Source: Candidatus Nomurabacteria bacterium (GTDB lineage Bacteria; Patescibacteriota; Minisyncoccia; Phycocordibacterales; UBA9973). Taken from it: a stretch of DNA of 64,000 bases. Position 1 is the first letter of the stretch. Each line of letters begins with the position of its first letter. Under the pieces are notes generated by a model, which was given only the letters and a program-made list of their open reading frames with translations, did not search any database and had not been told where the DNA came from. The DNA lies in contig CP064973.1 in assembly GCA_016699365.1 (NCBI GenBank), positions 507,524 to 571,523 on the forward strand, in the 5' to 3' direction. The position numbers were made by a program, and so were the translations under genes. This document shows, piece by piece, positions 10,347-56,918 of the stretch.

Positions 10347-10352
10347 TCGAGG

Positions 10353-19139: not shown

Positions 19140-19141
19140 AA

Positions 19142-23149: not shown

Positions 23150-23179
23150 TTTGTTTTTTTGCAAAATATTATTTTGGTA

Positions 23180-23188
23180 TGCTATAAT
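23180..23188 (+). promoter_or_regulatory. extended -10 element TGCTATAAT upstream of the 23216 paralog
   Basis: ggtatgctataatta lies 28 nt before the ATG. Confidence 0.45.
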
Positions 23189-23215
23189 TAAAGTAACTTT
23201 AGAGAACATACTTAT

Positions 23216-24313: not shown

Positions 24314-24406
24314 AACATGATATCCACAGTGTTGCTATGATATTTTTTGTGTGTTTATATGGTACAATTTTAAAATAGATTATTAAATTATTATCCAGAT
24401 TCAAAT

Positions 24407-25498: not shown

Positions 25499-25503
25499 AT
25501 CTT

Positions 25504-26544: not shown

Positions 26545-26559
26545 TATAGGTAAAGGCCG

Positions 26560-27459
26560 ATGTCTTTATTCAATAAAAACAAAAAGCATATTGTAGGCAT
26601 ATTTTTGCTTGGTATGCTTTTTGTTTTTTCTGCTGAAGTATCCAGTGCTGTTGATTTGAGTATATCTGCGCAGGTTGGTGCAGGGGGCGGTGGAGATGTT
26701 GGCGGGGGCGGAGGAGGTGGGGGTGGTGGAGGCGCAAATGATGGGGACTCCACTGTAAACTTTTCTGGATATGCATATCCACTGTCTCAGGTTATAGTAC
26801 TCCGTGACGGTATAGAGGTTGTACAGACTATTGCTGGTCCTGATGCAAAATTTAGTATAAGTATCTCAGATCTCCCAGAAGGTAACTATACTTTTTCTGT
26901 TCTAGCTGAAGATTATCAAGAAAGAAGATCCACTCTTTTTACATTTCCACTATATCTTACTGATGGATTGACTACTACTATATCCGGAATCTTTATTGCT
27001 CCATCTATTGCAATAGATAAAAGCGTAGTAAAGCAAGGAGAACAGATTACAATATTTGGACAATCTACTCCAAATTCTGAAGTTTCTATTAGTGTGAATT
27101 CGTTGAATGAGTTTATATTGAATACTTTTACTGATAGTAGTGGTATCTATCTATCTGTTTTTAATACAAGCTTACTTGAAATAGGTGATCATACTACACG
27201 ATCATATTCAAAGTACTTAGAAGCCACTTCTTCATATTCTAGTACACTTGCTTTTGAAGTTTCAGACAAAGCTGGGGAGGTTTTGGTGTGTGGTACAAAA
27301 GCCGATGTAAGTTCTGATTGTAGAGTAAACCTAGTGGATTTTTCCATGTTGGCTTATTGGTTTGAGAGAGGAACTCCACCTGTGGCGTTTGATTTATCTG
27401 GAGACGGCAAAATTACTTTGATTGATTTTTCTATAATGGCTTATTATTGGACTGGCTAA
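26560..27459 (+). CDS. secreted Gly-rich protein with C-terminal tandem dockerin-like repeats
   Basis: Signal peptide, a poly-Gly tract (GAGGGGDVGGGGGGGGGGGANDGD), and a C-terminus DVSSDCRVNLVDFSMLAYWFE ... DLSGDGKITLIDFSIMAYYWTG, which is two D-x-[SN]-x-D-G-x-[VI]-x-x-x-D-F-x-x-[LM] segments. Confidence 0.6.
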   Translation: MSLFNKNKKHIVGIFLLGMLFVFSAEVSSAVDLSISAQVGAGGGGDVGGGGGGGGGGGANDGDSTVNFSGYAYPLSQVIVLRDGIEVVQTIAGPDAKFSISISDLPEGNYTFSVLAEDYQERRSTLFTFPLYLTDGLTTTISGIFIAPSIAIDKSVVKQGEQITIFGQSTPNSEVSISVNSLNEFILNTFTDSSGIYLSVFNTSLLEIGDHTTRSYSKYLEATSSYSSTLAFEVSDKAGEVLVCGTKADVSSDCRVNLVDFSMLAYWFERGTPPVAFDLSGDGKITLIDFSIMAYYWTG

Positions 27460-27464
27460 AAAAC

Positions 27465-28364
27465 ATGAGAAACAATTATTTTAAAATACTTTTTATATTC
27501 ACCTTGCTTGTATTCACTAACAATATGATATTTGCTAGTGGCTCTGATGTCGTATTCAAATATCCAGAAAATACAACAAAGACAAGTAGTCCATTTTCCT
27601 TGAGTGTCTTATTGGATACATCCGGAGATGATATCAATGCTATTGAAGGCACTCTGTATTATGATGATAATTTTTTTGAACTAGTAGATATTGTTGATGG
27701 TAATAGTGTAGTTACTTCTTGGGTGAAAAAACCAGTAGAAGAAGGAGGGAAAATAACTTTTTCGGGGATCATGGCAGGTGGGTATCTTGGAACAATTGAG
27801 CCGTTGACCAACAATATCGGTCCAGGTGTCTTGTTTGAATTGGTATTATTGCCAAAGATAGAAGGATCTGGGTCTATTACACTTACAGATACAATTGTAT
27901 ATAAAAATGATGGACTAGGTACTTCAAAAAGTATTGCTACAAAAGACATATCAATAGAATCTAACATAAATGGATTTTCAGATTATATCCAAAATGTAGA
28001 CAATATAAGACCATTGGTTTTTTCTCCTATAATTTCAAAAAATCCGGATATGTTTGAGAATAGATATTTTATTGTATTTGATACACAAGATAAAGAATCT
28101 GGTATAGATCATTTTGAAGTAAGAGAAGGTAGGAGAGATTGGGTATTGGCAGAGAGTCCGTATGTCCTACAAGATCAGACATTGAAGAGTCATATACGTG
28201 TTAAGGCAGTAGATAAGGCTGGTAACGAGCGTGTAGTTAACTATGAAGACAGAATAGATTTTCCTATTTCAATTCTTTCTATACCGATTATTATTATCTT
28301 AATCATAATCATTTCTGTATACTTTTGGTACACTAGAAAAATACGTATTTTAAGTGTAAAATAA
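27465..28364 (+). CDS. membrane-anchored protein with cohesin-like beta-sandwich module and C-terminal TM
   Basis: Start at ATG 27465 (MRNNYFKILFIFTLLVFTNNMIFA; the track start 27447 is TTG). Cohesin-like pattern FSLSVLLDTSGDDINAIEGTLYYDDNFFELVDIVDG...GKITFSG...LFELVLLPKIEGSGSITL. C-terminal TM ILSIPIIIILIIIISVYFW. Confidence 0.5.
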   Translation: MRNNYFKILFIFTLLVFTNNMIFASGSDVVFKYPENTTKTSSPFSLSVLLDTSGDDINAIEGTLYYDDNFFELVDIVDGNSVVTSWVKKPVEEGGKITFSGIMAGGYLGTIEPLTNNIGPGVLFELVLLPKIEGSGSITLTDTIVYKNDGLGTSKSIATKDISIESNINGFSDYIQNVDNIRPLVFSPIISKNPDMFENRYFIVFDTQDKESGIDHFEVREGRRDWVLAESPYVLQDQTLKSHIRVKAVDKAGNERVVNYEDRIDFPISILSIPIIIILIIIISVYFWYTRKIRILSVK

Positions 28365-28369
28365 AATAC

Positions 28370-30121
28370 ATGACTCTTCCTTCGTTTAACATAAGAATTT
28401 TTTCTGTAACACTTTTTTTGTGTATATTTTTTATTGTTCCAAAAAATACAAATGCTGCTTCATTTCAAATATCTCCAACTACAGGCAATGTATCAAATTC
28501 AGGATCAATAACTCTCACGGTTAGTCTTGCGACTAGCTCATCTGTTCCAGTAAATGCTTTTTCAGGTAGGTTGAATTTTCCTACAGAATTAGTTTCGAAT
28601 ACAAATATATCTGTTAGTGGTTCAATCGCAAATTTTTGGACAGTGCAACCCTCAGTCTCTTCAGATGGTGTAATAAGATTTGAAGGTATTGTTTTAAATC
28701 CAGGTTTTAGTGGATCTAGTGGTAAGTTGTTTACAGCTACATTCAAGACAGAAGGTACAGGCACAGCAAACTTTAACCTTACTAGTGCGTCTATATTGGC
28801 AAACGATGGACTTGGTACAAATGTTTTGACTGCTACTTTACCTACATCTGTATTTACAATTGGAAACGCAGCCCCAGTGGCCACTACTCCTGCTACGACT
28901 AGCTCCACTCCGATTGCTCCGGAGATAATGTCTTCGTCACACCCAAATCCAAATGGCTGGCATAAAGAGACTGTAGCTGATCTTTATTGGGATCTTCCAG
29001 AAGATGCCAATGGAGTGTCATTTGTTTTAGATAAAAATCCTGGAACCATACCAGCAAAAGTTTCAAAGGGCTTAGTAAGTTCATATAAGTCTGAACCTCT
29101 AGAAGATGGTGTGTGGTACATGCATGTCATGATAAAGAATTCTGTCGGATGGGGAAGCGTTGCTCATTATAGAGTAGGCGTTGATACAGTTGCACCAGAA
29201 TCTGTGAGTATAACTCACGTCCACGAGGAAATTCCTATGGGCACTAGCAAGTTTGATATATCAGCCGAAGATATAACTTCAGGGATTGCTTACTATGAGA
29301 TAAGTTTTGATGCGGGAGATACGGAAATATTTAAAAAATATTCAGAAACTGATTTGTTTGAATCAAAAATCTTGCCACCAAAAAGATATCTTGTGGTTGT
29401 AAATGCATATGACTTTGCTGGAAATACAACTCCAGCCATTATGTATTTTACTGCAATGCCTGTGAATCAGCCGGTGATTACAGAGTACTCAAAAGAATTA
29501 AATAGTGGAGAATATTTAACTCTTTCGGGTACTGGATATGAAAATCAAAACGTAAGAGTTCGTTTTGAAAAAAGTAAAACATCTTTCTTTTATAAAATAT
29601 TTGCCCACACAAGAAGCGCTGCATTAAATGAAGAAGTAACAAAAGTAGACAAGGATGGGAAGTTCTCTTTTAGAAATGACGAATCTTGGAACGCTGGAAT
29701 ATATTATGTAACAGTTCGAAACGAACTATCCAACGGAGCTTTCAGTGAATACACAACTCCTGTTCAAATAACAGTAGAGAGTGGTGCTTTTGTTAGATTC
29801 ATAGAATCCTCTCTAAGATTCTTGATACCTGTCATTCCTTTCTTGCTTGCAATCATACTTATACTTTTTGCAGGATTGTTTATTTTAAGATTTTTCAAAA
29901 AATACAGAAGAATCCTGTCTAAACAAGTAAGAGAAGCTGAGGGTGTGGCCGATGAATCTATGAGATTGATTGACAGTGAAGTCTTGGATGAGATAAATCT
30001 GCTCAAAAAAGTACGCTCAGGTGAACCTCTATCAGAAAGAGAGCAGGCTTTCCTAACTAAACTTCGAGGGGATTTGGGTGTTGCAAATTCTATAATTCAA
30101 AAAGAAATAAAAGATATATAA
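28370..30121 (+). CDS. large surface protein with N-terminal cohesin-like module, Ig/FN3-like middle, and C-terminal TM plus cytoplasmic tail
   Basis: Signal peptide, cohesin-like segment (GSITLTVSLATSSSVPVNAFSGRLNFPTELVSNTNI...GVIRFEGIVLNPGFSGSSGKLFTATFKTEGTGTANFNL), a TM (FLIPVIPFLLAIILILFAGLFIL), then a charged tail. Confidence 0.5.
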   Translation: MTLPSFNIRIFSVTLFLCIFFIVPKNTNAASFQISPTTGNVSNSGSITLTVSLATSSSVPVNAFSGRLNFPTELVSNTNISVSGSIANFWTVQPSVSSDGVIRFEGIVLNPGFSGSSGKLFTATFKTEGTGTANFNLTSASILANDGLGTNVLTATLPTSVFTIGNAAPVATTPATTSSTPIAPEIMSSSHPNPNGWHKETVADLYWDLPEDANGVSFVLDKNPGTIPAKVSKGLVSSYKSEPLEDGVWYMHVMIKNSVGWGSVAHYRVGVDTVAPESVSITHVHEEIPMGTSKFDISAEDITSGIAYYEISFDAGDTEIFKKYSETDLFESKILPPKRYLVVVNAYDFAGNTTPAIMYFTAMPVNQPVITEYSKELNSGEYLTLSGTGYENQNVRVRFEKSKTSFFYKIFAHTRSAALNEEVTKVDKDGKFSFRNDESWNAGIYYVTVRNELSNGAFSEYTTPVQITVESGAFVRFIESSLRFLIPVIPFLLAIILILFAGLFILRFFKKYRRILSKQVREAEGVADESMRLIDSEVLDEINLLKKVRSGEPLSEREQAFLTKLRGDLGVANSIIQKEIKDI

Positions 30122-33508: not shown

Positions 33509-34972
33509 ATGGCAGCATTAGACGAAATTCGTGAGTCGCGTTTACAAAAATTGGCGCGTTTGCGTGAAGCTGGGATGGATCCATATCCAGCGCGTATTTC
33601 TCGCGACCTAAGTCTAAAAGATTTGCGTGAGAATTTTGACTCTAAACAATCCGCTAGTGAAAAAGTTACTGTAGCAGGACGCATCATGGCGATTCGTGGA
33701 CAAGGTGCGATACTTTTTGTCGTACTAGATGATGGAACAGATAAGTTTCAATGTGTTTTCAAAAAGGACACAATTGATGAAAAACTTTTTACTTTATTTA
33801 CTGAAGCCATAGACATAGGAGATTTTATCTCTGTCTCTGGAACACTCTTTACAACAGAGCGTGGTGAGAAAAGCATACTAACAGAATCTTGGAATATTGT
33901 TACAAAATCTCTTTTGCCGCTTCCTGAAAAATGGCACGGTATAACGGACGAGGACGAACGCTATAGAAAGCGATATTTGGACATGCTTATGAATCCAGAG
34001 CTCAGAGAGATTTTTAAAAAGAGATCAAAATTCTGGAATGTTATGAGAGAATACCTTCTATCAAAAGATTTTATAGAAGTAGAAACTCCTGTACTTGAAA
34101 ATACAACCGGGGGTGCAGACGCACGTCCATTTATAACTCACCACAATGCGCTTGATATTGATGTATATTTACGTATTTCAGCAGGAGAGCTGTGGCAGAA
34201 GAAATTACTCGTTGCTGGGTTCCCAAGAACATTTGAAATAGGCCGAATATTTAGAAACGAAGGGATGTCCGCTGAACATCTTCAGGACTATACACAACTC
34301 GAATACTATATGGCGTATTCTGATTTTAACCAGGGTATGGAGATGACAAAAGAGTTGTATCGACTTATTGGAGAGAAGGTATTTGGAACTACAAAATTTA
34401 CTATAAAAGGATTTGAAATAGATCTAGCGGGTGATTGGCAGATATATGACTTTGTTGAAATAATAAAAAAGGAATACGGGATTGATGCGCTCGATACCAA
34501 TGCTCTAGAAATTGAAGATACATTGAAAAAATATGAAATAAAATATGAGGCCAATGATGTAAGTGTCAAGAGAGGAGTTGATCTTCTGTGGAAGAGAGTT
34601 CGCAAGACAATTGGTGGGCCAGGATTTTTGATAAATGTACCAGTATATTTGGAGCCACTTGCAAAGAAGAATCCTGAAAATCAAAAGACAGTTGAACGTT
34701 TTCAGGTGATACTTGCTGGTAGTGAGATGGGTAAAGGATTTAGTGAGTTGAACGACCCAGTAGATCAAAAAGAAAGATTTATGAGCCAGCAAGCACTTCG
34801 CGATGCAGGTGATGATGAAGCACAGATGGCAGATATGGAATTCGTCGAGGCACTAGAACACGGTATGCCTCCAGCATTTGGTTTCGGACTCTCAGAGAGA
34901 TTGTTTAGTTTTCTAATTGATAAACCTGTCAGAGAAACTGTATTATTTCCATTGATGAAGCCTAGAGAATAA
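33509..34972 (+). CDS. lysS: lysyl-tRNA synthetase (class II)
   Basis: OB-fold N-terminal domain, then class II motifs (FRNEGMSAEHLQDYTQLE; GFGLSERL). Confidence 0.95.
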   Translation: MAALDEIRESRLQKLARLREAGMDPYPARISRDLSLKDLRENFDSKQSASEKVTVAGRIMAIRGQGAILFVVLDDGTDKFQCVFKKDTIDEKLFTLFTEAIDIGDFISVSGTLFTTERGEKSILTESWNIVTKSLLPLPEKWHGITDEDERYRKRYLDMLMNPELREIFKKRSKFWNVMREYLLSKDFIEVETPVLENTTGGADARPFITHHNALDIDVYLRISAGELWQKKLLVAGFPRTFEIGRIFRNEGMSAEHLQDYTQLEYYMAYSDFNQGMEMTKELYRLIGEKVFGTTKFTIKGFEIDLAGDWQIYDFVEIIKKEYGIDALDTNALEIEDTLKKYEIKYEANDVSVKRGVDLLWKRVRKTIGGPGFLINVPVYLEPLAKKNPENQKTVERFQVILAGSEMGKGFSELNDPVDQKERFMSQQALRDAGDDEAQMADMEFVEALEHGMPPAFGFGLSERLFSFLIDKPVRETVLFPLMKPRE

Positions 34973-41884: not shown

Positions 41885-43078
41885 TTATTTCTTTGGTCGT
41901 CTTAGGAACGCAGGTACTGCACTCCAATCATCTGTATCATCTTCAAAAATATCATCTTCTTTTACCTCTGCTTTCTTTAGATAGTCAGAAGGTAGGGAAT
42001 TGTGTATTTCTTTTTTTGGTTCTATTACCAATTCAGATTTAGGAGTAGGTTGTATTACAGGTTTTGCTTCAAATTCTTTTTGTCCTTGAAAAAGAGATCT
42101 CTTTGAAGAGTCAGTAGGGAATCCAGTTGCGATAACTGTAACCTTCATCTCGCCCTTCTTGAGTCTTTCGTCACGGATAGTTCCAAATATTACACGTGCA
42201 TCTTTGTCGATAGATTCTGTGATTATTTTTGCTGCTTCTTGGATTTCTAGAATTCCCAAGTCGTCACCACCAGATATTGCAAAGAGTACTCCACGTGCGC
42301 CATTTATAGATAGATCGAGTAGAGGTGAGTTTATAGCTTGTAGAGCTGCTGTTTGCGCACGGTTGTCGCCTGAGCCAAATCCGATACCCATCAGTGCACT
42401 ACCTGCATCAGACATAACTGCCTTGATGTCAGCGAAGTCTACGTTGATTATACCTGGAGTTGTGATTAGGTCTGAGATTCCTTCTACTGCTTGGCGAAGG
42501 ATTTCGTCACACAATGCAAAAGCTTGTTTGAATCCAGTGTCTTTGTCAGCGATCATCAAAAGACGATCGTTTGGTATTACGAGTATTGCATCAACTTCTT
42601 TTTCGAGTTCACTGAGTCCATTTTCAGCAAGCTTCATACGTTGATTACCTTCAAATGAGAATGGTTTTGTAACTACTGCTACTGTTAGTATTCCTTGTTC
42701 TTTTGCTGCACGAGCAACTATAGGAGCTGCACCAGTTCCTGTTCCTCCTCCCATACCACAAGCTATGAAAACCATATCAGCACCTTTGATTGTGTCTTGT
42801 ATTTCAGCTTTTGTTTCTTCTGCTGCTTTCTTTCCAACATCAGGGTTCATTCCAGCACCAAGACCTTTGGTAAGGTTCTTACCAATGTGAATTTTCTTGT
42901 CTGCAAGAGACTTGTGAAGGTCTTGAGTGTCAGTATTCATACATATGAATTCAACACCCTTTACCTTAGAGCTAATCATGTGATTTATGGCATTGCCGCC
43001 GGATCCTCCGACTCCAATTACCTTTATTCGTGCAAATGTTTCAATTTCTGGGTTTATTTTAGGCATACAAAACGGCAT
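41885..43078 (-). CDS. ftsZ: cell division GTPase FtsZ
   Basis: IKVIGVGGSGGNAINHM ... tubulin signature GGGTGTGAAP ... T7 loop NVDFADI; disordered C-terminal tail. Confidence 0.95.
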   Translation of the reverse strand: MPFCMPKINPEIETFARIKVIGVGGSGGNAINHMISSKVKGVEFICMNTDTQDLHKSLADKKIHIGKNLTKGLGAGMNPDVGKKAAEETKAEIQDTIKGADMVFIACGMGGGTGTGAAPIVARAAKEQGILTVAVVTKPFSFEGNQRMKLAENGLSELEKEVDAILVIPNDRLLMIADKDTGFKQAFALCDEILRQAVEGISDLITTPGIINVDFADIKAVMSDAGSALMGIGFGSGDNRAQTAALQAINSPLLDLSINGARGVLFAISGGDDLGILEIQEAAKIITESIDKDARVIFGTIRDERLKKGEMKVTVIATGFPTDSSKRSLFQGQKEFEAKPVIQPTPKSELVIEPKKEIHNSLPSDYLKKAEVKEDDIFEDDTDDWSAVPAFLRRPKK

Positions 43079-43174
43079 TTGAGGGATTCCCCCAAACGCG
43101 TACTAAAAGTAGTAATGGACCAAAACTGTTATGTGACCACTATAGCAGATAATATTGAAAAGACACAAGGGGTG

Positions 43175-44329
43175 CTAGGGAAGTAGTTGCTTACCTAAAA
43201 TTCGGAAGAATTTTTTAAGGTTTGCGATGGCTCCTCCACCACTTCCTGCCATAGAGGATTCTTTCTGTATGATTGCAAGACCAAATGCATTACTCCAAAC
43301 AGAATCGCGAATTTTACCTTTTGATATTTCTACAAGCGGATCTATTCCTAGTCTTGCAGGGAGTTTCAGAGAAAGTCTAGCGCCCTCTTCTAGATTTGTG
43401 AACTGAGAACTACCTCCGATAAATATTGCTCCTGCGGGTAACAATCCGTTTCTACGAATTTTTTTAAGATGTGTATCTATAAGTTCGAACATGTCTCCCA
43501 ATCTTGCTTCGATAATATCGTCGAGTTTTCTTTTTGGAAAATTACTCATGATGCTTCCGGTTTTTATACTTTCTGCTTCTTCGAGAGGAATTTTTAGTCC
43601 AAGTGCGATGTCGTTTGTAATATCATTTCCGCCAATAGGGAATACAGCTAGTGTGACAGGTTGGTTATCTTCATAAACGACCAGACTGGTAGTTTCAGAA
43701 CCTATGTTCACAAGTGCACATCCTGCAGTTTTTTGCTTTTCTCCCAAGTGCACTACTCCTGCTGCTACTATACTTGGAACTATATCTATAATATCTACGC
43801 CTGCTTCACTAACTGCACCTATAAGTAAGTCCAAGTGTTGAGCTAGTGATGTATTAAATAGAGTTTTTACTTCGAGCTTGATACCTTTCATTCCTATTGG
43901 AGAACCTAAAACAGGCTTACCGTCTATGCGAAAGCCAATTGGGTGATTGTCTACTATTTTTTTGTTTGCAAGTGTTAGTTCTTCTTCGGATTCAAGCATT
44001 GCCTTCTCGACATCCAAATGGGTAACTTCATTGTCTGCTTTTGATATGATTGCAGCACCAGAACTTGTTTCGCAAGATAGAGTTACTCCTCCAACACCTA
44101 GAGTGACTCTTTTTATAGAGACTCCAGAATTTTTCTCGGCATCTTTCAATGCACGTAAAACTGAAGCAGATACATGAGCTTGATTCACAACATATCCATG
44201 ACGCATTCCACGAGTAGGACTAGAACCCAGACCAATAACCCTAGGGTTTTGTTCTCCTTGTACTTTTTCACACACAACAACACGTGTAGTTTGTGTGCCT
44301 ACGTCTAAGCCGGCTGTAATATTTCGCAT
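43175..44329 (-). CDS. ftsA: cell division protein FtsA (actin-like ATPase)
   Basis: LDVGTQTTRVVV ... DIGGGTT-like (NIGSETTSLV) ... GGSS; sits immediately upstream of ftsZ. Confidence 0.9.
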   Translation of the reverse strand: MRNITAGLDVGTQTTRVVVCEKVQGEQNPRVIGLGSSPTRGMRHGYVVNQAHVSASVLRALKDAEKNSGVSIKRVTLGVGGVTLSCETSSGAAIISKADNEVTHLDVEKAMLESEEELTLANKKIVDNHPIGFRIDGKPVLGSPIGMKGIKLEVKTLFNTSLAQHLDLLIGAVSEAGVDIIDIVPSIVAAGVVHLGEKQKTAGCALVNIGSETTSLVVYEDNQPVTLAVFPIGGNDITNDIALGLKIPLEEAESIKTGSIMSNFPKRKLDDIIEARLGDMFELIDTHLKKIRRNGLLPAGAIFIGGSSQFTNLEEGARLSLKLPARLGIDPLVEISKGKIRDSVWSNAFGLAIIQKESSMAGSGGGAIANLKKFFRILGKQLLP

Positions 44330-44356
44330 GTTTATGTTTGGAATTCGAAAAGAGAA

Positions 44357-44749
44357 TTATTTTATGTGAAAATATTTCTTCCACTTTTCTTCCTTAGCTT
44401 CCATTGTACTACCATGATCGAATCCTAACAAATGTAGCATTCCGTGGATAATTAAGAATCCTGTGAAATTTTTTATATTCATGCCAAATTTTGGAGCTTC
44501 TTTTTTTATTACATCTGGAGCTAGGAGTATTTCGCCAGAATTTTCTGTTAGAGAAAAAGATAGGACGTTTGTGGGCTTGTTCTTGCCTCTATACTTTTTA
44601 TTTATCTTTTTTATTTCCTTATCTTCCAAAAATACGATTGAGAGTTCGTATTTTTTACCCAATATTTTGTCCTTGATATTCGCAAAAGGCAAGCGTGGAA
44701 GCTTGCCTTTTGTTTGGTTGATGATACTGATTGTATCTGGTCTCAACAT
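44357..44749 (-). CDS. ybeY: rRNA maturation endoribonuclease YbeY
   Basis: HGMLHLLGFDH zinc-binding H3xH5xH motif. Confidence 0.85.
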   Translation of the reverse strand: MLRPDTISIINQTKGKLPRLPFANIKDKILGKKYELSIVFLEDKEIKKINKKYRGKNKPTNVLSFSLTENSGEILLAPDVIKKEAPKFGMNIKNFTGFLIIHGMLHLLGFDHGSTMEAKEEKWKKYFHIK

Positions 44750-44752
44750 ATC

Positions 44753-44992
44753 TTAGCGAGAACGTTCTACGATTTTACCAAGTTTTTTTAGTCGTTCAAC
44801 ATTTTTTCTCTTTGCAAGATTTTTTAGTTTACCTTTTTTTAGTGCGAGCTTTGAAAGTGGTCTTTCACTGTATCGATTGCCCTTCACTTTTTGAAGTAAA
44901 CCAGCTTCTTGTACTCGACGAGTAAAACGTCTTAGGACGCTGGCGTTGTTTTCGTTTGTGTTCTTTTTTATTTCTATACTTACGGTTGACAT
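44753..44992 (-). CDS. rpsU: 30S ribosomal protein S21-like
   Basis: MSTVSIEIKKNTNENNASVLRRFTRRVQEAGLLQKVKGNRYSERPLSK..., the basic S21 pattern (ALRRFKR...AG). Start taken at the internal ATG rather than the longer track ORF. Confidence 0.65.
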   Translation of the reverse strand: MSTVSIEIKKNTNENNASVLRRFTRRVQEAGLLQKVKGNRYSERPLSKLALKKGKLKNLAKRKNVERLKKLGKIVERSR

Positions 44993-45034
44993 AAGTGTAA
45001 AGATACCATAGTAAAATGAGTCTTGCAAGGGTTC

Positions 45035-47008
45035 CTAGAGGATACTTCCTGGGTTTATTTCTATTTGTACGTCTAAAGGCAGGCTTGCTAGTTTGGATTC
45101 TATAATAGGGTCCAAATCTTTCTTTTGAGCCAATCTTTCTATAGACCAGGAGTTTTCAGGTATTTTCATGAGAAGAGATACTTTGTATTCATTTTTTCCT
45201 CCTGCAATTACACTTTCCCATATATCAAACTGTACTCCCGAGAACACTTCTTTTAATATATTGGTCACTTCTCCGATTCTTTCCTTTTTACCTTTTGCTG
45301 TAATTTTGAATATCGTTGAATATGGCGGGTAAAAGAAATTTTTTCTATCAGAAAGTTCATTTCTAAAGAATGAGTGTAAAGTTCCGTGCATGTATGCTTC
45401 TAGTACATCCTCTTCACTTCTCGATTGGATGATTAATTCATTTTGTGTATTTACAGATACATCATCTAAAAGTCTTATAACTTTTTCACTAATTGTATAA
45501 GATGGAATCGAAAATAGTGTGTCGAAAGATACAATCACAGACACGGGGACTTTTTTTGTAAAATAGTACATCGCAAGTTCGGTTCCAACCAAGATACTTC
45601 CTGGTGAATTTTCGAATTCCTCTATAAGTGCCACAGCTTCTTTGTGTGATTTTACGCGCTCTTTGTCTATTTGGAATATTTTTCTAGAAGGGAAGCGCTC
45701 TGTTAGTGCTTCAAAAACTCTGTCCGTACCGATTCCTAGAGCTACAAGATTCCAACTTCCACAAGATGAACAGGTTATGTTGGTGCGTTCTTTGTATTTG
45801 CATTTTTGACATATAAATTTTCGCATAGGATCATCATTTTTTTTATCAGACCCAAGTAGGAAAAGTGGAGTTTTGCATTTTGGACAACGAACACGCTCTC
45901 CGCAGTCATTGCAAACAGTTGTGGGGGCAAATCCTTTTCGAAGTGCAAACATAAAAACATTCGTTTTTTCTTTGTCAGTTTTTATTAGTAAGCTTTCTAC
46001 CTCTTCTGAAAATATGAAGCCCTGCTTTTTGTCAGTTTTTATAGAACGGTCTACTAGGGTTACTGATTTTGGTTTTTCGATTCTAAAATTCAAAGGCCGA
46101 ATTTCTAAAAATTCATGTGTTTCAAGTTTATATAGAGTTTCAGAACGGAGTATTGTATCGCATAGCAACAATCTTATTCTGTGGGTGTGTGCATAAAAAT
46201 ACGCTACTGTTCGCATGTCTATATGAGGAGTAGATATAGTCTTGTATGCATCGGAACTCTCGTTCTCTACTATCAGGGTTCCAATATCTTTCCTCGGTAT
46301 ACACAGGAAACTTCCCGTACCTATAATACAAAGAGGATGAGGTTCATCAGTAATTTTTTTGAATGATTTTATCAATACAGAATCTTTTTCTCCGCTATAC
46401 AAAAGCACTGAATGCTCTTCTATGCCACGTGACAAAAAGTCATAAAGTTTTTGTGCGTCGAACCATGTTGGGACCATTATGAAAACTGATTCTTTTCGAG
46501 CAAAAGATTCACGGATGAGTGTTTTGTAGTAGCTCTGTCTCTCGCTTCTAGGTGCCTGCAGAATAAATTTTTCTATAGATTTTTTATCTGTGTTTGCAGT
46601 AGTTGGCTCAGATTTTTTATCTAGTTTTATTTTTTGTACAAATATAGATGGTATAAGCGTGCCAAAAACACTAGGACTACTCGTAGCAAAATATCTTCGA
46701 GTCATCTCCACGACTTCTAGAAATTTTTCATTTAAAAAAGAGTGACCTTTTACACGTAGTATTTTTTTGAGTTTAAAAGAAGCCCTCTTGAATTCTTGTT
46801 TATCAGTTTTTAGATCTTTGCATTCTAGTACGAGTGCATCTATCTCTCTTCTTCCAATTTCAACAACAACCACACTTCCAGGTTCTATAGGATTTGCGGA
46901 AAAGTAAGTCAGTTCTTCTAACTTAGCTACCTTTTTAATTGGGACGACTCGGATGCTGTACATAACTAAAAAATACCATATAGGTTGTTTTCTAACTATT
47001 CTTGCCAA
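45035..47008 (-). CDS. priA: primosomal protein N' (PriA) homolog with degenerate ATPase/helicase motifs
   Basis: N-terminal 3'-DNA-binding domain, then the region aligned to Walker A reads FILQAPRSERQSYYK (E. coli LLAGVTGSGKTEVYL). Motif II reads LIVENESSDAYK (E. coli VIVIDEEHDSSYK). The Cys-rich zinc-binding region is conserved (FAPTTVCNDCG...CPKC...CQKC...CSSCG). Confidence 0.8.
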   Translation of the reverse strand: MARIVRKQPIWYFLVMYSIRVVPIKKVAKLEELTYFSANPIEPGSVVVVEIGRREIDALVLECKDLKTDKQEFKRASFKLKKILRVKGHSFLNEKFLEVVEMTRRYFATSSPSVFGTLIPSIFVQKIKLDKKSEPTTANTDKKSIEKFILQAPRSERQSYYKTLIRESFARKESVFIMVPTWFDAQKLYDFLSRGIEEHSVLLYSGEKDSVLIKSFKKITDEPHPLCIIGTGSFLCIPRKDIGTLIVENESSDAYKTISTPHIDMRTVAYFYAHTHRIRLLLCDTILRSETLYKLETHEFLEIRPLNFRIEKPKSVTLVDRSIKTDKKQGFIFSEEVESLLIKTDKEKTNVFMFALRKGFAPTTVCNDCGERVRCPKCKTPLFLLGSDKKNDDPMRKFICQKCKYKERTNITCSSCGSWNLVALGIGTDRVFEALTERFPSRKIFQIDKERVKSHKEAVALIEEFENSPGSILVGTELAMYYFTKKVPVSVIVSFDTLFSIPSYTISEKVIRLLDDVSVNTQNELIIQSRSEEDVLEAYMHGTLHSFFRNELSDRKNFFYPPYSTIFKITAKGKKERIGEVTNILKEVFSGVQFDIWESVIAGGKNEYKVSLLMKIPENSWSIERLAQKKDLDPIIESKLASLPLDVQIEINPGSIL

Positions 47009-47069: not shown

Positions 47070-48239
47070 ATGCAAAGATTAACCACAGAGACTAATTTCT
47101 CTACTCACTTGATTGACTCAATCAAGAACGAGGCTGAGCTTGCCATTAGAGCAGGAATATTTCCGGGTTGTGTGATTGGTTTGATTAAACCTAGCGCAAA
47201 TAACGGTAAGGATATCGATGATGTTTTTGATTCACTCATATTGAGTTATGGGGCCTCAAGATACGACCATTCGCCGTTCCTGGGACAGTATTCTGTATAT
47301 GATATTGCAAGTATCACAAAAACTTTCACAGCAATGCTTGCCCTCAAGCTTGTAAATGAAGGTAAAATTTCGCTCGATACAAAGATTGCAAGTATCTTAC
47401 CTTTAGAAGGTGAGCACACAGAAGACGTAACTTTATACCACCTGCTTACTTTTACTGTTGAATTTAATTTGCGTGAAGGTATAGATGTCTTATGGAGTAT
47501 GCCTACAGAAAAAATATTGAATACTATTTTTACTGCAGGGCTTCGAGAAGCTCCCGGGACACATCACCAATATCGAAATTCTACAACCTTACTTCTAGGT
47601 TTAGTAATTGAGACGGTGGTTCAAAAATCAATTGACGTATTGATGAAGGAGGTAATTTTCGAACCTTTTGGGATGCACTACACTACGTATCATCCAAGTG
47701 ACTTTTGCCTGTGGAAAGATGCGATTGTTCCGACTGAATTCGATGAAAAATTTAGAAAGAGAATGATTGTAGGAGAGGTACATGATGAATTGTCTTGGAA
47801 GTTTTATCAGGACAATAAAAGATGTACTGGAGTAGCTGGAGTATTTTCTACACCAAACGACCTTGTGCAGTTTGCAAAAGCAGTGTTGCGAGGATGTCAG
47901 AGTGGTAGATACAAGCTTTACCCAAATGGCTTTCAAGATGAAAGAAATATCGGCATTCAAATGCAAAAGGATCAACTAACTCATTTGCCTGGGCATAGAT
48001 TTGGATTTGGGTGGGATAAATTTTTTCCTGAATATTCACATTGTAAATGTTTCACTGAAAATGCGATTGTGGCTACAGGTTTTACAGGATGTTCAGTAAC
48101 ACTTCATACTGAGAAGAAGCTTGGTATTGTGGTCTGTTCAAACGTTGTGCACCCCAAAAGACGTACTGATAAGGCAATGAAAGAATTCCGTCAGCGTATT
48201 GCAAATCTCGTTGTGTATTGTAAACATTGCGATGATTGA
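47070..48239 (+). CDS. serine hydrolase of the class C beta-lactamase / PBP4*-like esterase family
   Basis: SxxK (ASITKTF), YxN-like and downstream motifs; no signal peptide evident. TGA stop at 48237-48239. Confidence 0.65.
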   Translation: MQRLTTETNFSTHLIDSIKNEAELAIRAGIFPGCVIGLIKPSANNGKDIDDVFDSLILSYGASRYDHSPFLGQYSVYDIASITKTFTAMLALKLVNEGKISLDTKIASILPLEGEHTEDVTLYHLLTFTVEFNLREGIDVLWSMPTEKILNTIFTAGLREAPGTHHQYRNSTTLLLGLVIETVVQKSIDVLMKEVIFEPFGMHYTTYHPSDFCLWKDAIVPTEFDEKFRKRMIVGEVHDELSWKFYQDNKRCTGVAGVFSTPNDLVQFAKAVLRGCQSGRYKLYPNGFQDERNIGIQMQKDQLTHLPGHRFGFGWDKFFPEYSHCKCFTENAIVATGFTGCSVTLHTEKKLGIVVCSNVVHPKRRTDKAMKEFRQRIANLVVYCKHCDD

Positions 48240-48287
48240 TTTTATAAACGACTCGAAAAAGAGTCGTTTTTTTGTTATTATTTCCTT

Positions 48288-49787
48288 ATGTTACCTGAAG
48301 CAGAAAAATATTATGGTGAAAAACTTAGAGTCTTGGCGGATGCGGATATTAGAAGTGCAAGGAGAAACGAACCAGAGGGTATATCTGAGATAAAAAAAGT
48401 TCACCTCACAGGTGTTTGTGGTACTGCTATGGGATCACTCGCGGGACTTTTTCAAGAGGCGGGGTATGAAGTAAGTGGAAGTGACGAAAAATGTTATCCG
48501 CCGATGAGCGATTTTATAAAAGACAATAACATAAAATTTTATGAAGGATTCGATGCTGGCAATGTTGTAGGAAAAGATTTGTCAGTAACTGCAAATATGT
48601 TCGGTGCAGATAATATAGAAGCAGTGGTAGTGAGGAATAATTTTTTACCACAGCTTTCGATGGCTAGCGCAATCAACAAATTTTTCATTAGAGATAGAAA
48701 ATCATTGGTGGTTTGTGGTACGCATGGCAAAACTACGACAACAGGATTACTCGAACATGTTTTTACTGTGTGTGGTAGGGATCCAGGATATTTAGTAGGA
48801 GGAATACCTGTGGGGAGTGAAAAAAGTTATCATGTAGGTTCTGGTGAATATTTCATAATTGAAGGAGATGAATATGATACTTCATATTTTGATAAGAGTC
48901 CGAAATTTTTACACTACAATCCATATATCGCTATAGTTACCTCTATAGAACTTGATCATGTAGATATATATAGAGACTTGGAAGACTACAAACAGGCTTT
49001 TAGATTTTTAGCACAGATTGTAAAACCAGAAGGCTTGTTAATCTTGTGCAAAGAAAATTTAAATACTTTGGAACTTATGAATTTCACAAAAGCAAAAGTT
49101 GTAACTTATGGTTTTGATGAAAGTGCAAATATTTTTGCAAAAGATATAAAAAACGATGAGTCTGGTCAGAGTGCAGATATATATATGAATAAGGTTTTAC
49201 TAGGCAGGATAACAACACCTTTGTTTGGTAAATACAACTTACTCAATACTCTATCTGTTATAACAGCTGCGCTCCATGAAGGCATAGATTTTGAAAATAT
49301 CTCGCATTCGTTGAAACTTTTTAATGGGATGAAAAGACGGCAGGAAATAATAGGAATTGTAAACGGAATTACAGTTATAGATGATTTTGCACATCATCCG
49401 ACTGCTGTACGAGAGACACTCTCTGGGATAAGAGAAAGATTTTTAGGCAGAAGAATCGTGGTTTTCTTTGAACCTCGTTCAGTCACTAGTAGAAGGAAAA
49501 TATTTGAAGCTGATTACGCTAGTTCATTTGGAAATGCTGACATGATATTTTTATCTACACCTGCTCTCCGCAGCGTAGATGATCCAAAAGATTTTATTGA
49601 TCCAAATATTGTAGCAGGATTGATAAGAGAAAAAGGTAAACAGGTTTATGCATTGAATAATGCCGGTGAAGTTTTAGAGAAAGCACTTCCTTTATTGAAG
49701 TCAGATGATGTTGTTGTAATTATGAGCAATAGTTCATTTGATGGAATACACAAAAAACTCCTAGAAAAATTAAAAGACCTCAATTGA
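48288..49787 (+). CDS. Mur ligase family protein, Mpl/MurC-like (UDP-N-acetylmuramate-L-Ala or murein tripeptide ligase)
   Basis: HLTGVCGTAMGSLAGLFQEAGYEVSGSDEKCYPPMS parallels the Mpl N-terminus; ATP-binding GTHGKTTTT; TGA stop inside a palindrome at 49775-49795. Confidence 0.75.
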   Translation: MLPEAEKYYGEKLRVLADADIRSARRNEPEGISEIKKVHLTGVCGTAMGSLAGLFQEAGYEVSGSDEKCYPPMSDFIKDNNIKFYEGFDAGNVVGKDLSVTANMFGADNIEAVVVRNNFLPQLSMASAINKFFIRDRKSLVVCGTHGKTTTTGLLEHVFTVCGRDPGYLVGGIPVGSEKSYHVGSGEYFIIEGDEYDTSYFDKSPKFLHYNPYIAIVTSIELDHVDIYRDLEDYKQAFRFLAQIVKPEGLLILCKENLNTLELMNFTKAKVVTYGFDESANIFAKDIKNDESGQSADIYMNKVLLGRITTPLFGKYNLLNTLSVITAALHEGIDFENISHSLKLFNGMKRRQEIIGIVNGITVIDDFAHHPTAVRETLSGIRERFLGRRIVVFFEPRSVTSRRKIFEADYASSFGNADMIFLSTPALRSVDDPKDFIDPNIVAGLIREKGKQVYALNNAGEVLEKALPLLKSDDVVVIMSNSSFDGIHKKLLEKLKDLN

Positions 49788-49798
49788 GGTCTTTGTTT

Positions 49799-50437
49799 TT
49801 ATTTTGTCACAAGCCATGCACGTGACCAGATTCGGCACACGCCATAGTAATTGTTTTCTACCATAAAGCCGAAGGAGAGCTCTTCTCGCATAAAGTCGCC
49901 GTCTCCGCCAAATTTCCCATCAAGTTTTGGGCTATCAGAAAAGCTTGTCCCCCAATTTCCTCGTTCACTTTCGATAAATGTATAGAGTAGGTCACCTATA
50001 GATAATTCTTGTTCAGGGAATGATTCGTATTCTTGTTCATCAATTACATGGAACATAAACTGAAGTGCAAATTTTGGGACAACTCGCATTTGAAGCAGGA
50101 ATCCATCGGATTGGGGATCTCTGGATTCTTCAATGAAGACCGAATAATCTTTATCGTTTGAATTAACTTCAGTTATACGCAAGAGTGCACCGAAGTCTTC
50201 TTCGGTGATTTCGTTACCAAAATAAACATATCCGCCCGTAGCCTCTTGTGGAGGTGCGGATTTAAATGGATTGGGTACATTTTTGTTTTGATATCCATAC
50301 ACTCCATTTCCTGAAGGTAATAATTTAGATAAATCTCCTGGCTGTGTTTTTACACGTGCATTGGGCCATATTAGTGGAGAAATTTTTACTTTTCCTCCAA
50401 GGTCAAAAATTAGTCTTGTTCCTTTATCTTTTTCCAT
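49799..50437 (-). CDS. hypothetical protein (212 aa)
   Basis: Intact ORF divergent from mreB; no recognisable motif. Confidence 0.45.
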   Translation of the reverse strand: MEKDKGTRLIFDLGGKVKISPLIWPNARVKTQPGDLSKLLPSGNGVYGYQNKNVPNPFKSAPPQEATGGYVYFGNEITEEDFGALLRITEVNSNDKDYSVFIEESRDPQSDGFLLQMRVVPKFALQFMFHVIDEQEYESFPEQELSIGDLLYTFIESERGNWGTSFSDSPKLDGKFGGDGDFMREELSFGFMVENNYYGVCRIWSRAWLVTK

Positions 50438-51540: not shown

Positions 51541-52239
51541 ATGCTCAAAGTATTTTTTGAAAATATCACCCTCGATAAACTAGACTCCACTCTTATTGTA
51601 GAAGGAGACAAGGATCAGGTTCTAGATATAATAAAAAATTTCTTAGATAAGTCTGGTATAAGCTGTATAGGCAATCCAGATGTTTCGATAGAAGATTTCT
51701 CAACTTTTACTGTTGAAGATGCAGAAGATTTGTTTGCTCGTTCAAATCTACTATCCTATTCAGGTAAAAAATCTTTCAATATATTTTATTGCGCATCCAT
51801 GACATCTGAGGCAATGAATAAAATTTTGAAACTTTTCGAAGATCCTAAAAAAGACAAACATTTTATATTAGTAGTTCCTAGAAAGATAGATATATTGCCG
51901 ACTCTTTTATCTAGAGCGACAGTGCTCACACTCTCAGGAGAAAAAATTGATAAAAATGCAGAAGAATTTTTAAGCATGAGTATTTCTGATAGATTGGAAT
52001 TTATAGTTTCTTTTCTGGATAAATTTGAAGATGAAGAGGATACTGGAATCAAGAGAGATAGCGTAGTCAGAGTACTAGATTCAATAGAAATTATTTTAAA
52101 TAAATCTGGAGGTGTCGCAGACAATATAAATTCTTTAAAATTGATATCCAAGTACAAGAATTATCTTAGACTTAGGGGTTCAAATCCAAAAATGCTACTT
52201 GAACATCTTGCTCTAGTTTTACCTAAAATACCCGCTTAG
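51541..52239 (+). CDS. holB: DNA polymerase III clamp-loader delta'/delta-like subunit (no Walker A)
   Basis: NKILKLFEDPKKDKHFILVVPRKIDILPTLLSRATVL parallels the delta' signature ALLKTLEEPP..FIL......LLPTIRSRC. Confidence 0.5.
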   Translation: MLKVFFENITLDKLDSTLIVEGDKDQVLDIIKNFLDKSGISCIGNPDVSIEDFSTFTVEDAEDLFARSNLLSYSGKKSFNIFYCASMTSEAMNKILKLFEDPKKDKHFILVVPRKIDILPTLLSRATVLTLSGEKIDKNAEEFLSMSISDRLEFIVSFLDKFEDEEDTGIKRDSVVRVLDSIEIILNKSGGVADNINSLKLISKYKNYLRLRGSNPKMLLEHLALVLPKIPA

Positions 52240-55889: not shown

Positions 55890-56918
55890 ATGGCAACCAC
55901 GACTTTTAAACCAAAACAGGTCACAAAAAAAATCCTATCTCCATTGCAGGACAGAGCTTATGATGTAATCATAAGTAGATTTGGTCTTGATGATAGTGCA
56001 GAAAGAAAAACTCTAGAAGCTATCGGCGAGATATATGGTATTACACGTGAGCGTGTGCGCCAGATTGAAAATGCAGCTCTACAATCAGTTCGTAAGTCTG
56101 ATTCATACAAAGAACATGCTCCAGTTTTTAGTGAACTTCGTTCAATAATAGAAGATCTTGGTGGTGTTGTATCTGAAGATGAATTACTTTCAAACCTATC
56201 AAAAGACAAATCAACTCAGAATCATTTTCATCTATATTTGGTTTTAGGTGATGAATTTACAAAACATAAAGAAGATGAGCATTTCAAATCACGCTGGTCA
56301 GTAGACAACGACACAACTGATAAAGTTCATGATTCTTTGAAGAAACTATACACTTCACTTAAAGACGAAGAACTTATTCCAGAAAGTGATCTAATAGAAA
56401 AATTCTTGGATTACGTAAAAGATATCTCAGCAGAATATCGCAACGAAGAAATTGCTCGTCGCTGGTTATCTATTTCAAAAACAATCAATAAAAATCCTCT
56501 AGGTGAATGGGGTAAAGCAGATTCTTCAAACGTTAAGACTCGTGGTATCAAGGACTATGCTTTTCTTATGATGAGAAAAAATGGTGAACCTATGCACTTC
56601 CGTGAAGTTGCTGATGCAATATGTAAAACTTTTGGTAAAAAAACTCATGTTGCTACATGTCACAATGAGCTTATAAAAGATTCTCGCTTTGTACTCGTTG
56701 GACGAGGAAAGTATGCTCTAAAAGAGTGGGGTTACAAACCAGGTGTTGTAAAAGATGTTATAAAGGAAATTCTTAAGAAAGAAGGCCCACTATCAAAAGA
56801 CGAAGTTGTAGAGAAGGTCATGAAAGAAAGATTCCTAAAGAAGAATACAATCCTAGTAAACCTACAAAATCCAAAATATTTCAAGAAAAATAAACAAGGT
56901 CTATATACTCCAGTATAA
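55890..56918 (+). CDS. DNA-binding protein: N-terminal sigma-70 region-4-like HTH fused to a C-terminal HARE-HTH/winged-helix domain
   Basis: LQDRAYDVIISRFGLDDSAERKTLEAIGEIYGITRERVRQIENAALQSVRK (sigma r4.2-like). C-terminal YAFLMMRKNGEPMHFREVADAI...FVLVGRGKYALKEW (HARE-HTH pattern). Confidence 0.5.
   Translation: MATTTFKPKQVTKKILSPLQDRAYDVIISRFGLDDSAERKTLEAIGEIYGITRERVRQIENAALQSVRKSDSYKEHAPVFSELRSIIEDLGGVVSEDELLSNLSKDKSTQNHFHLYLVLGDEFTKHKEDEHFKSRWSVDNDTTDKVHDSLKKLYTSLKDEELIPESDLIEKFLDYVKDISAEYRNEEIARRWLSISKTINKNPLGEWGKADSSNVKTRGIKDYAFLMMRKNGEPMHFREVADAICKTFGKKTHVATCHNELIKDSRFVLVGRGKYALKEWGYKPGVVKDVIKEILKKEGPLSKDEVVEKVMKERFLKKNTILVNLQNPKYFKKNKQGLYTPV

Follow-up and report, generated by a model that had tools for sequence, protein, structure and literature searches.

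Can a PriA protein whose helicase motor has been dismantled still be maintained by selection, and for which job? The question is raised by an uninterrupted open reading frame (ORF) at 45035..47008 on the minus strand of the window, the 64-kb stretch of DNA that was analyzed here. The preliminary description presented its product as a PriA homolog, likely to be catalytically dead, in which the ATPase and helicase motifs are degenerate and the zinc-binding and 3' DNA-binding regions are intact. The evidence assembled below points, with good probability, to the PriA ortholog of Paceibacteria (Patescibacteria, candidate phyla radiation or CPR), turned into a pseudohelicase and serving as an ATP-independent platform for replication restart. 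All features located below lie on the minus strand.

The span first given for the gene is that of the whole ORF. Its stop end stands (stop codon 45035-45037), but its start has been moved from 47008 to the ATG at 46963. The start is placed there because the homologs, which are 630-660 amino acids long and open with MYSIRV or MKIxTVIP, all begin in alignment with this codon. The TTG at 47008 lies upstream in the same frame, and judging from the alignment the 15 codons behind it are almost certainly read-through. The coding sequence of the PriA-like pseudohelicase is thus 45035..46963 and encodes 642 amino acids, coordinates that were confirmed by translation. A scan for promoters and terminators around the gene gave no more matches than were found in shuffled sequence.

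The profile and sequence matches to PriA are much too strong to arise by chance, in agreement with the homology claimed in the preliminary description. The NCBIfam model TIGR00595 matches residues 161-629 of the 657-residue ORF (146-614 in the numbering of the 642-residue protein, which is used from here on) with an E-value of 2.7e-61. Among the PDB chains, the PriA structures of K. pneumoniae and E. coli are matched by phmmer at E 4e-30, and the family profile gives E 2e-45. The TIGR00595 score of 207.7 bits is below the equivalog cut-off of 230.35, the scores for the sub-models PRK05580 and PRK14873 are far under their cut-offs, and PriA_3primeBD is the sole Pfam domain detected in the protein. 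Relatives are labeled "hypothetical protein" by NCBI and "superfamily II helicase" by IMG; both labels are inaccurate for the PriA-like proteins of Paceibacteria.

The AlphaFold model (pLDDT 86.3, pTM 0.86) provides further evidence of this relationship. Foldseek matches it to PriA structure 8fak (E 2e-38, TM 0.73) and to 6dcr, which has the highest TM-score (0.75), and the next match that is not a PriA has an E-value of 1e-9 and a TM-score of 0.29. The model and the alignment give the same order of domains: a 3' DNA-binding domain (3'BD), helicase lobe 1, helicase lobe 2 with an inserted cysteine-rich region (CRR), and a C-terminal domain (CTD). Structure prediction had been proposed as a check on whether the RecA fold survives without a nucleotide site, and the RecA-like lobes, the zinc region and the CTD are all kept in this confident model, which matches solved PriA structures.

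The 3'BD (residues 1-110; 46634..46963) is a beta-barrel with helices, modeled as strands at residues 2-74 and helices at 79-111. PF17764, the Pfam family of this domain, scores 26.6 bits, above its cut-off of 22.7. Residues Y20 and F21 do not vary and position 66 (K66) is Lys or Arg, so the claim that this region is intact holds for the domain and for these residues; it does not hold for D17 of E. coli PriA, which aligns with T19, a position that is Thr or Ser throughout the family.

The domain that follows in E. coli PriA, the winged-helix domain, is absent. E. coli residues ~109-211 have no counterpart and are replaced by a variable linker of 20 residues (111-130; 46574..46633), which is modeled with a pLDDT of ~60 and has a mean pairwise identity of 0.22 among homologs. 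One of the two best structural matches, 6dcr, is an E. coli PriA from which the winged helix was deleted. The preliminary description mentions neither this loss nor the lineage-wide spread and the Deinococcus precedent that are described below.

The CRR (residues 351-405; 45749..45913) is inserted in lobe 2 and consists of four CxxC pairs followed by S-W-N-L. C351, C354, C360, C363, C385, C388, C398 and C401 are invariant in all 120 sequences compared and align with E. coli C436 to C479. The zinc-binding region is therefore intact, as had been stated, and four such pairs are by their number enough for two predicted zinc sites. D353, S403, W404 and N405 align with D438, S481, T482 and H483, the residues with which E. 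coli PriA docks PriB (PMC10175261), and the S-W-N-L surface is itself invariant. Motif IV is retained upstream of the CRR (45926..45940; RKGFA, compared with RRGFA in E. coli), with R342 invariant and K343 and G344 present in more than 95% of sequences. The C-terminal part of lobe 2 (residues 406-545; 45329..45748) contains motif V (GTE, 45578-45586), whose residues G460, T461 and E462 vary little or not at all, and a remnant of motif VI (DDVSVNTQN, 45440-45466). The CTD (residues 546-642; 45038..45328) aligns with the C-terminus of E. coli PriA and is modeled with a pLDDT of ~90. Its landmarks, Y545-P-P and W606, are invariant, and in the alignment it has a 6-residue deletion at E. coli positions 698-703, adjoining the reported site for the SSB tail.

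Lobe 1 (residues 131-290; 46094..46573) keeps a RecA-like fold, modeled with a pLDDT of 90-96, and has lost the nucleotide site. The motif equivalences that follow were obtained from two independent alignments, by phmmer and by MAFFT, which agree with one another and fit the predicted secondary structure. The dead Walker A motif, or motif I (46535..46558), reads QAPRSERQ in place of GVTGSGKT; E. coli G224-T231 correspond to Q136-Q143, which puts R142 in the column of K230 and E141 in that of G229. The family pattern is Q-x4-[DE]-R-hydrophobic. Of 346 aligned sequences, 344 have Arg in the K230 column and 342 have no glycine at any of the six positions that match E. coli G224-G229. In the AlphaFold model helix alpha-1 begins at R139, after a loop of only two residues behind strand beta-1, and the P-loop is thus modeled as replaced by an extra helical turn.

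The remaining catalytic motifs have fared no better. Motif II, or Walker B (46256..46267), is ENES at residues 233-236 compared with DEEH at 320-323 of E. coli; E233 and E235 are invariant in the family, the position of E321 is H, N, K or R, and that of H323 is S or N. The remnant of the aromatic-rich loop (46211..46243) reads KTISTPHIDMR compared with KQQEGWRYHAR, with Pro in place of W333 and an aliphatic residue in place of Y335, two residues that couple DNA binding to ATPase activity in E. coli PriA (PMC5175346). Motif III (46154..46162) is altered from GSA355-357 to CDT268-270, in which D269 is nearly invariant across the family. Motif VI has lost both arginines, and a 5-residue deletion in the GRAGRAGK region leaves no Arg there. 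Motif Ia has a 4-residue deletion, and motif Ib has lost its Arg and conserved its Thr.

Four of these replacements had been proposed in the preliminary description (GVTGSGKTEVY to QAPRSERQSYY in motif I, VIDEEHDSSYK to VENESSDAYK in motif II, GSATP to CDTIL in motif III, and QVAGRAGRAGK to DVSVNTQNE in motif VI), and both alignments arrive at the same equivalences. The peptides quoted there, which also include IMVPTWFDAQK and LRKGFAPTTVCNDCG, are all found in the translation of the ORF. The wider statement that every ATPase and helicase motif is degenerate applies to motifs I, II, III and VI, but not to motifs IV (R342-K-G) and V (G460-T-E). A canonical GxGKT or DExH elsewhere in the protein would have pointed to misalignment, but no canonical motif turned up at another place: the strict pattern GxxGxGK[ST] is absent from this protein and from all 361 homologs. 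Three loose GxGK[ST] strings among the 361 proteins lie at non-homologous sites (two of them close to the CRR, at residues 336 and 385, and the third at residue 70 within the 3'BD of homolog P0263), and a DEPH at residue 206, which resembles DExH, is off the position of motif II. Because the nucleotide site is dismantled in its P-loop, DExH, motif VI and aromatic loop, the protein most likely cannot bind or hydrolyze ATP, translocate or unwind, judging from these substitutions and from published PriA mutants.

The same dead form is found in at least 569 GTDB species genomes, all of which are labeled Paceibacteria or Patescibacteria. A phmmer search returned 8300 representatives of 50%-identity clusters at E<=1e-10, of which 1243 are at E<=1e-30; the 150 best matches listed are all members of the dead-PriA family, and the named relatives are all Patescibacteria. 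The question of whether orthologs carry the same substitutions is answered by the Walker A columns described above. Since they do, in more than 340 independent homologs, an assembly error is excluded. A search for the boundary with canonical PriA inside Patescibacteria, seeded with P0208, a divergent family member in which motif II still reads D-x-E-H, gave family members only.

Purifying selection on the gene, as had been claimed, is evident from a comparison with one relative of 90% amino-acid identity: dN/dS is ~0.05 overall (dS 1.05), 0.012 in lobe 1, and 0.12 in the CTD, the highest value among the folded domains. Relatives with 67-70% amino-acid identity were excluded from this calculation, as their synonymous sites are saturated. 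Lobe 1 is also the most constrained region across the family, with a mean pairwise identity of 0.54 and 16 invariant columns. By segment, conservation is highest in the old motifs II-V (0.67-0.79, with motif IV at 0.79) and lowest in the old motif VI (0.33). Of ten genes syntenic between the window and its closest NCBI relative, the priA-like gene has the lowest identity (70%, versus 77-96% for the others); the constraint is real yet comparatively relaxed.

Immediately downstream on the same strand are rpsU (encoding S21), ybeY, ftsA and ftsZ (41885..45028), identified from their translations with Pfam labels from locus L083. Because the S21 gene starts 6-42 nt past the priA stop, priA and these downstream genes are likely to be an operon. 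Among the 69 related loci that have downstream sequence, the gene order is kept for S21 and YbeY in 31 each, for FtsA in 27 and for FtsZ in 22. On the other side, mreB is divergent from priA in 68 of 84 related loci. No gene for DnaB, a loader, SSB or PriB is present within the 64-kb window.

We propose that the parts of PriA that would serve fork recognition and primosome assembly, namely the 3'BD, the Thr of motif Ib, motifs IV and V, the zinc region and the CTD, remain under strong selection for that use. The pseudohelicase would bind to forks that have been abandoned, or to D-loops, where single-stranded DNA of the lagging strand is already exposed. Once bound, it would serve as a platform that needs no ATP and would bring in the replicative helicase, either directly or via a loader or SSB-like partner. 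In this it would be similar to the PriA of D. radiodurans and to the route by which E. coli restarts replication with PriA and PriB but without helicase activity. Some canonical contacts may differ, since E. coli D17 is replaced by Thr or Ser and the CTD stretch at ~698-703 is deleted. Because the same dead version spans a large group of very small bacteria that have not been cultured, stalled replication is probably restarted without PriA unwinding across these bacteria.

A bolder version of this proposal, which we consider rather unlikely, gives the dead cleft a use of its own. Q136, [DE]141-R142, E233, E235 and D269 may have been rebuilt into a latch, or into a new site for a ligand or partner, that fixes the RecA lobes; together with the S-W-N-L face they would form a winged-helix-less, ATP-independent platform for loading DnaB in bacteria without PriB, DnaT and DnaC. 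If this were so, much of the Patescibacteria would be characterized by a distinct restart mechanism, and the arrangement of mreB and priA-rpsU-ybeY-ftsA-ftsZ could allow coordination with cell division.

The conserved position of the gene, divergent from mreB and upstream of rpsU-ybeY-ftsA-ftsZ, could instead mean that the protein is a neofunctionalized PriA derivative which no longer serves restart, for example a DNA-binding or zinc adaptor for division or cell shape, with replication restarted by a canonical PriA elsewhere or by other factors. The protein has lost the winged helix and has D17 replaced, it has invariant residues of its own (Q136, R142, E233, E235, D269 and W404) unlike canonical PriA, and it evolves faster than its neighbors, all of which would fit such a change of job. 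However, neighborhood is weak functional evidence in compact genomes, and only the winged helix is missing from the PriA architecture, of which the 3'BD and the DNA-contact motifs are still part. Neither the window nor 888 kb of sequence from the 84 related loci revealed a second PriA homolog, and Patescibacteria have small genomes with few paralogs. The dead PriA of Deinococcus, moreover, still binds forks and DnaB. On this evidence neofunctionalization is unlikely.

The invariant charged residues in the old cleft (R142, E233, E235 and D269) and the high conservation of the segments around them might also be read as an active ATPase or helicase with a non-canonical site, in which Arg142 would take the part of the P-loop lysine and E233 and E235 that of Walker B. 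This is highly improbable. [quoted passage not shown] In the present family the P-loop Gly is missing from all but four of the 346 sequences, an acidic residue precedes the Arg, and a hydrophobic residue replaces the Thr or Ser that should follow it. The catalytic Glu is H, N, K or R, the motif VI arginines are gone along with five residues, the aromatic residues of the coupling loop are lost, and the model has a helix where a loop would be expected. The reading of the locus as a pseudogene in decay, or as an artefact of sequencing or assembly, which the sub-threshold NCBIfam score and the NCBI name "hypothetical protein" might suggest, is refuted by the conservation data and has a negligible probability, given an intact frame of 642 codons, the low dN/dS, the confident model and the recurrence of the same substitutions in homologs from many studies.

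The pseudohelicase reading has a precedent in D. radiodurans, whose PriA has a K-to-R substitution in Walker A, lacks ATPase and helicase activity, and binds forks and DnaB (Lopper et al. 2015, PMC4504706); because of this precedent the concept is less novel. That paper is the only one found on PriA pseudohelicases, a search for an actinobacterial precedent gave nothing usable, and no report of a dead-PriA family was found in the literature on PriA in Patescibacteria or the candidate phyla radiation. The present protein resembles the PriA of Deinococcus-Thermus in the Lys to Arg change in Walker A, the lineage-wide poor consensus of motifs I and II and the retained cysteine-rich region, and it resembles D. 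radiodurans PriA in its proposed role as a helicase-independent restart scaffold. It differs in belonging to another phylum (Patescibacteria, class Paceibacteria/Minisyncoccia). By comparison with the text of the Deinococcus paper, its degeneration goes further: the P-loop glycines are lost, as are the aromatic-rich loop and motifs III and VI, there are deletions in motif Ia (4 residues) and motif VI (5 residues), and the winged helix is absent. It is thus a second, more extreme natural PriA pseudohelicase, one that is real, under selection and lineage-wide, and whose putative role is that of a scaffold. The lineage it represents is also far larger, comprising no fewer than 569 species genomes and some 1,200 clusters at 50% identity. 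Here the motor has been dismantled beyond one disabling substitution, the winged helix has gone too, and selection is still strong. That such a PriA persists under strong selection lends support to the view that the recognition of forks and the assembly of the primosome, rather than unwinding, make up the essential and ancestral job of PriA.

With the PriA proteins of E. coli and K. pneumoniae (PDB 4nl4, 6dgd and 8fak) the protein shares the order of domains, TM-scores of 0.73-0.75, motifs IV and V, and the Y-P-P landmark, at an identity of ~18-23%. Unlike them it lacks the winged-helix domain, the aromatic-rich loop and functional versions of motifs I, II, III and VI, and its CRR surface has S-W-N where the PriB-docking surface of the enterobacterial proteins has S-T-H. 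The substitution at the P-loop lysine is the same as in E. coli priA300 (K230R), which despite its loss of all three motor activities still supports restart by the PriA-PriB route (PMC5778457; PMC10175261). In E. coli priA300 and the K230A/D mutants, ATPase-dead PriA still assembles a primosome. Those mutants are engineered, each with a single change in an otherwise intact helicase, and have PriB, DnaT and DnaC as partners, whereas the loss described here is natural, ancient and spread over several motifs, and PriB, DnaT and DnaC were not identified in the window. The protein may provide a naturally minimal PriA with which the reloading of DnaB in the absence of PriB, DnaT and DnaC could be studied. 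The likeness to 6dcr lies in composition as well as in TM-score (0.75), as the two have the same domains once the winged helix is removed; in 6dcr it was deleted from an active helicase by engineering, whereas here its absence is natural and family-wide.

The protein encoded at 45035-46963 (-) is PriA, as judged from homology and fold, and is best read as a Paceibacteria PriA orthologue that has become a pseudohelicase. The NCBIfam model TIGR00595 (priA) matches it at E 2.7e-61 over residues 161-629 of a 657-aa ORF (146-614 in 642-aa numbering), with a score of 207.7 bits, below the curated cut-off of 230.35. Pfam finds the 3' DNA-binding domain (3'BD) only, at 26.6 bits (cut-off 22.7). Searches against solved PriA chains give E 4e-30 when started from this sequence alone and E 2e-45 when started from a profile of its family of PriA homologues that lack the ATP motifs. 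An AlphaFold2 model built from an alignment of 114 family sequences is confident (pLDDT 86.3, pTM 0.86), and its Foldseek matches to PriA from E. coli and from K. pneumoniae have E values between 2e-38 and 1e-29 and TM 0.66-0.75; the first match outside PriA is Mfd (E 1e-9, TM 0.29).

The uninterrupted minus-strand ORF covers 45035-47008. Homologues are all 630-660 aa long with their N-terminus at an internal ATG (MYSIRVVP...), and the nearest database protein, which differs at three residues, has 642 aa. This sets the gene at 45035-46963 (-), with 642 codons and a stop; the 15 codons upstream of the ATG, beginning with a TTG, are read-through. Coordinates of the gene's parts were verified through translation. 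The S21 ORF as listed (44753-45028, -) likewise starts from an upstream TTG; since S21 homologues have 79 aa, its true start is the ATG at 44992 (MSTVSIEIKK...), 42 nt from the priA stop.

The window is low in GC (about 0.36) and contains the housekeeping genes topA, dprA, serS, ftsQ, clamp-loader subunits, mraZ/mraW, PBPs, ftsA/ftsZ, mreB, frr, bipA and mnmA. Gene order around the PriA-like gene is conserved among relatives: mreB lies upstream and divergent in 68 of 84 related loci (median gap 68 bp), and rpsU, ybeY, ftsA and ftsZ lie downstream in 22-31 of 69. The relatives' records are labelled Candidatus Paceibacterota, Nomurabacteria, Moranbacteria, Vogelbacteria, Taylorbacteria, Minisyncoccia or 'Patescibacteria group'. 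Queried with E. coli PriA, tblastn detected no further PriA-like sequence, either in the window or across 888 kb surrounding the gene in 84 relatives. It is unlikely that the protein is a repurposed paralogue rather than the orthologue itself. Unlike the 68 relatives with direct adjacency, the window has three genes between mreB and the PriA-like gene (47070-50437), encoding a PF00144 beta-lactamase-like protein, a Mur ligase (Mpl-like) and a 212-aa protein without a Pfam match. The same arrangement is present in the closest NCBI MAG, GCA_031972635.1.

Family-specific peptide patterns occur in at least 600 stretches of GTDB species genomes, at least 569 of them confirmed. A phmmer search run exhaustively against 1.84 billion cluster representatives yielded 1243 matches at E<=1e-30, rising to 8300 at E<=1e-10 and to 11073 at E<=1e-3. 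Among these 11073, the best 150 (bit scores >=355) are all of the dead form. Naming differs between databases, NCBI using "hypothetical protein" and JGI/IMG [quoted passage not shown]. Many ENA MAGs with a family member are labelled 'uncultured Candidatus Saccharibacteria bacterium', probably a generic label; their proteins are indistinguishable from Paceibacterota-labelled ones.

Motif equivalences are concordant between MAFFT alignments with E. coli PriA (reference sequence from NC_000913.3) and the HMMER alignment with K. pneumoniae PriA, and are upheld across 346 family sequences. At motif I (Walker A), E. coli G224-V-T-G-S-G-K230-T corresponds to Q136-A-P-R-S-E-R142-Q, the family pattern being an invariant Q and, further on, [DE] followed by R and a hydrophobic residue. 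The K230 column is Arg in 344 of the 346 sequences, and the six positions aligned to G224-G229 are glycine-free in 342. A strict Walker A is absent throughout all 361 retrieved family proteins. In the model, strand beta-1 is predicted to end at Q136 and helix alpha-1 to start at R139, with the phosphate-binding loop down to two residues. Motif Ia (VPEIGLT) becomes VP----T, a 4-residue deletion across the family; motif Ib (GTRSAL) becomes GTGSFL, with Thr invariant and Arg lost; motif II (D320-E-E-H) becomes E-N-E-S (E/D, H/N/K/R, E, S/N in the family); motif III (GSA) becomes CDT, its Asp nearly invariant; and motif VI (Q-V-A-G-R-A-G-R-A-G-K) becomes D-V-S-V-N-T-Q, with both Arg lost and a 5-residue deletion. 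The aromatic-rich loop K328-QQEGWRY is replaced by KTISTPHI, W333 by Pro and Y335 by an aliphatic residue; alanine substitutions at these two positions reduce the E. coli ATPase most (PMC5175346). Motifs IV (RRGFA to RKGFA) and V (GTQ to GTE) are conserved in the family. On these alignments the loss is selective: ATP binding and hydrolysis motifs I, II, III and VI and the coupling loop are gone, and motifs IV and V, which contact nucleic acid in SF2 enzymes, are kept. The segments of old motifs II, III, IV and V still have the highest mean pairwise identity in the family (0.67-0.79), and old motif VI is the least conserved segment (0.33). That the protein is a non-canonical ATPase is highly improbable.

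A sub-group of about 30 family members (P0129, P0153 through L081, and P0208) has kept Asp at the first position of motif II (D-[KR]-E-[SN]; D-C-E-H in P0208), often with an Arg-rich stretch, L-x-R-[LI]-R, where motif VI would lie. In all of them Arg still replaces the P-loop Lys and the P-loop is without glycine. These members may be intermediates that branched off earlier.

All eight zinc-ligand cysteines are found in every one of 120 sequences. The E. coli PriB-docking residues on the cysteine-rich region, D438, S481, T482 and H483 (PMC10175261), align with D353, S403, W404 and N405. Because these are invariant or nearly so, yet read S-W-N against S-T-H in E. coli, the surface may be a conserved docking face for a partner other than PriB. 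In the 3'BD, Y20, F21 and K66/K67 are conserved, and Thr/Ser takes the place of D17, which contacts the 3' end in E. coli. Nothing in the protein corresponds to the winged-helix domain (about E. coli 109-211); the 3'BD is joined to lobe 1 by a 20-residue linker of poor conservation and low model confidence. Of the two top Foldseek matches, one is the engineered winged-helix-deletion PriA structure 6dcr, which has the highest TM-score. The C-terminal domain is retained but lacks the 6 residues aligned to E. coli 698-703.

Comparison with a relative at 90% amino-acid identity (Logan SRR29476925) gives a dN/dS of 0.05 at a dS of 1.05, which is near saturation; constraint is strongest in helicase lobe 1, where dead motifs I to III lie (dN/dS 0.012). 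A pseudogene or artefact has next to no probability. When ten syntenic genes are compared between the window and the GCA_031972635.1 locus (L083), identity is 70% for the PriA-like protein and 77-96% for MreB, FtsZ, TrxR, FtsA, S21, YbeY and the others. The PriA-like protein thus evolves fastest of the ten, and constraint on it is looser than on its neighbours.

Other loci in the window were also noted. Seven consecutive large ORFs at 16587-28364 (+), of 850, 1335, 365, 363, 346, 299 and 305 aa, have no Pfam match at E<=1e-5; GC reaches 0.42-0.435 near 20-24 kb, compared with about 0.36 in the rest of the window, and the sole match of the following ORF (28370-30121) is a weak Ig-like one. The region may be a lineage-specific surface/secreted-protein cluster or a foreign island. 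A 309-aa protein at 9341-10270 (+) consists of a class II aminoacyl-tRNA synthetase core (tRNA-synt_2) alone, without an anticodon-binding domain, and resembles EpmA/PoxA-type truncated paralogues; a full-length synthetase of the same class is at 33509-34972. DNA_pol3_delta2 domains occur in two separate proteins, at 10311-11390 (+) and 51541-52239 (+), namely an AAA+ clamp-loader subunit of 359 aa and a short protein of 232 aa. A 342-aa protein at 55890-56918 (+) pairs N-terminal sigma-70 region 4 with a HARE-HTH domain, an unusual combination.

[quoted passage not shown] It probably still functions in replication restart, since the parts for fork recognition and assembly are kept under selection, the E. 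coli K230R mutant priA300 supports the PriA-PriB route (PMC5778457; PMC10175261), and D. radiodurans PriA retains fork and DnaB binding (PMC4504706). Without unwinding, it would act only at forks and D-loops with lagging-strand ssDNA already exposed; alternatively, another helicase could supply that ssDNA.

A literature search found no paper tying PriA to Patescibacteria or CPR as a pseudohelicase. The natural PriA pseudohelicase is already known as a concept from Deinococcus-Thermus, and a 2017 review (PMC5778457) names Deinococcus as the sole exception. The Paceibacteria family is notable for the size of the lineage, for how completely the motor has been dismantled, and for having lost the winged helix as well.
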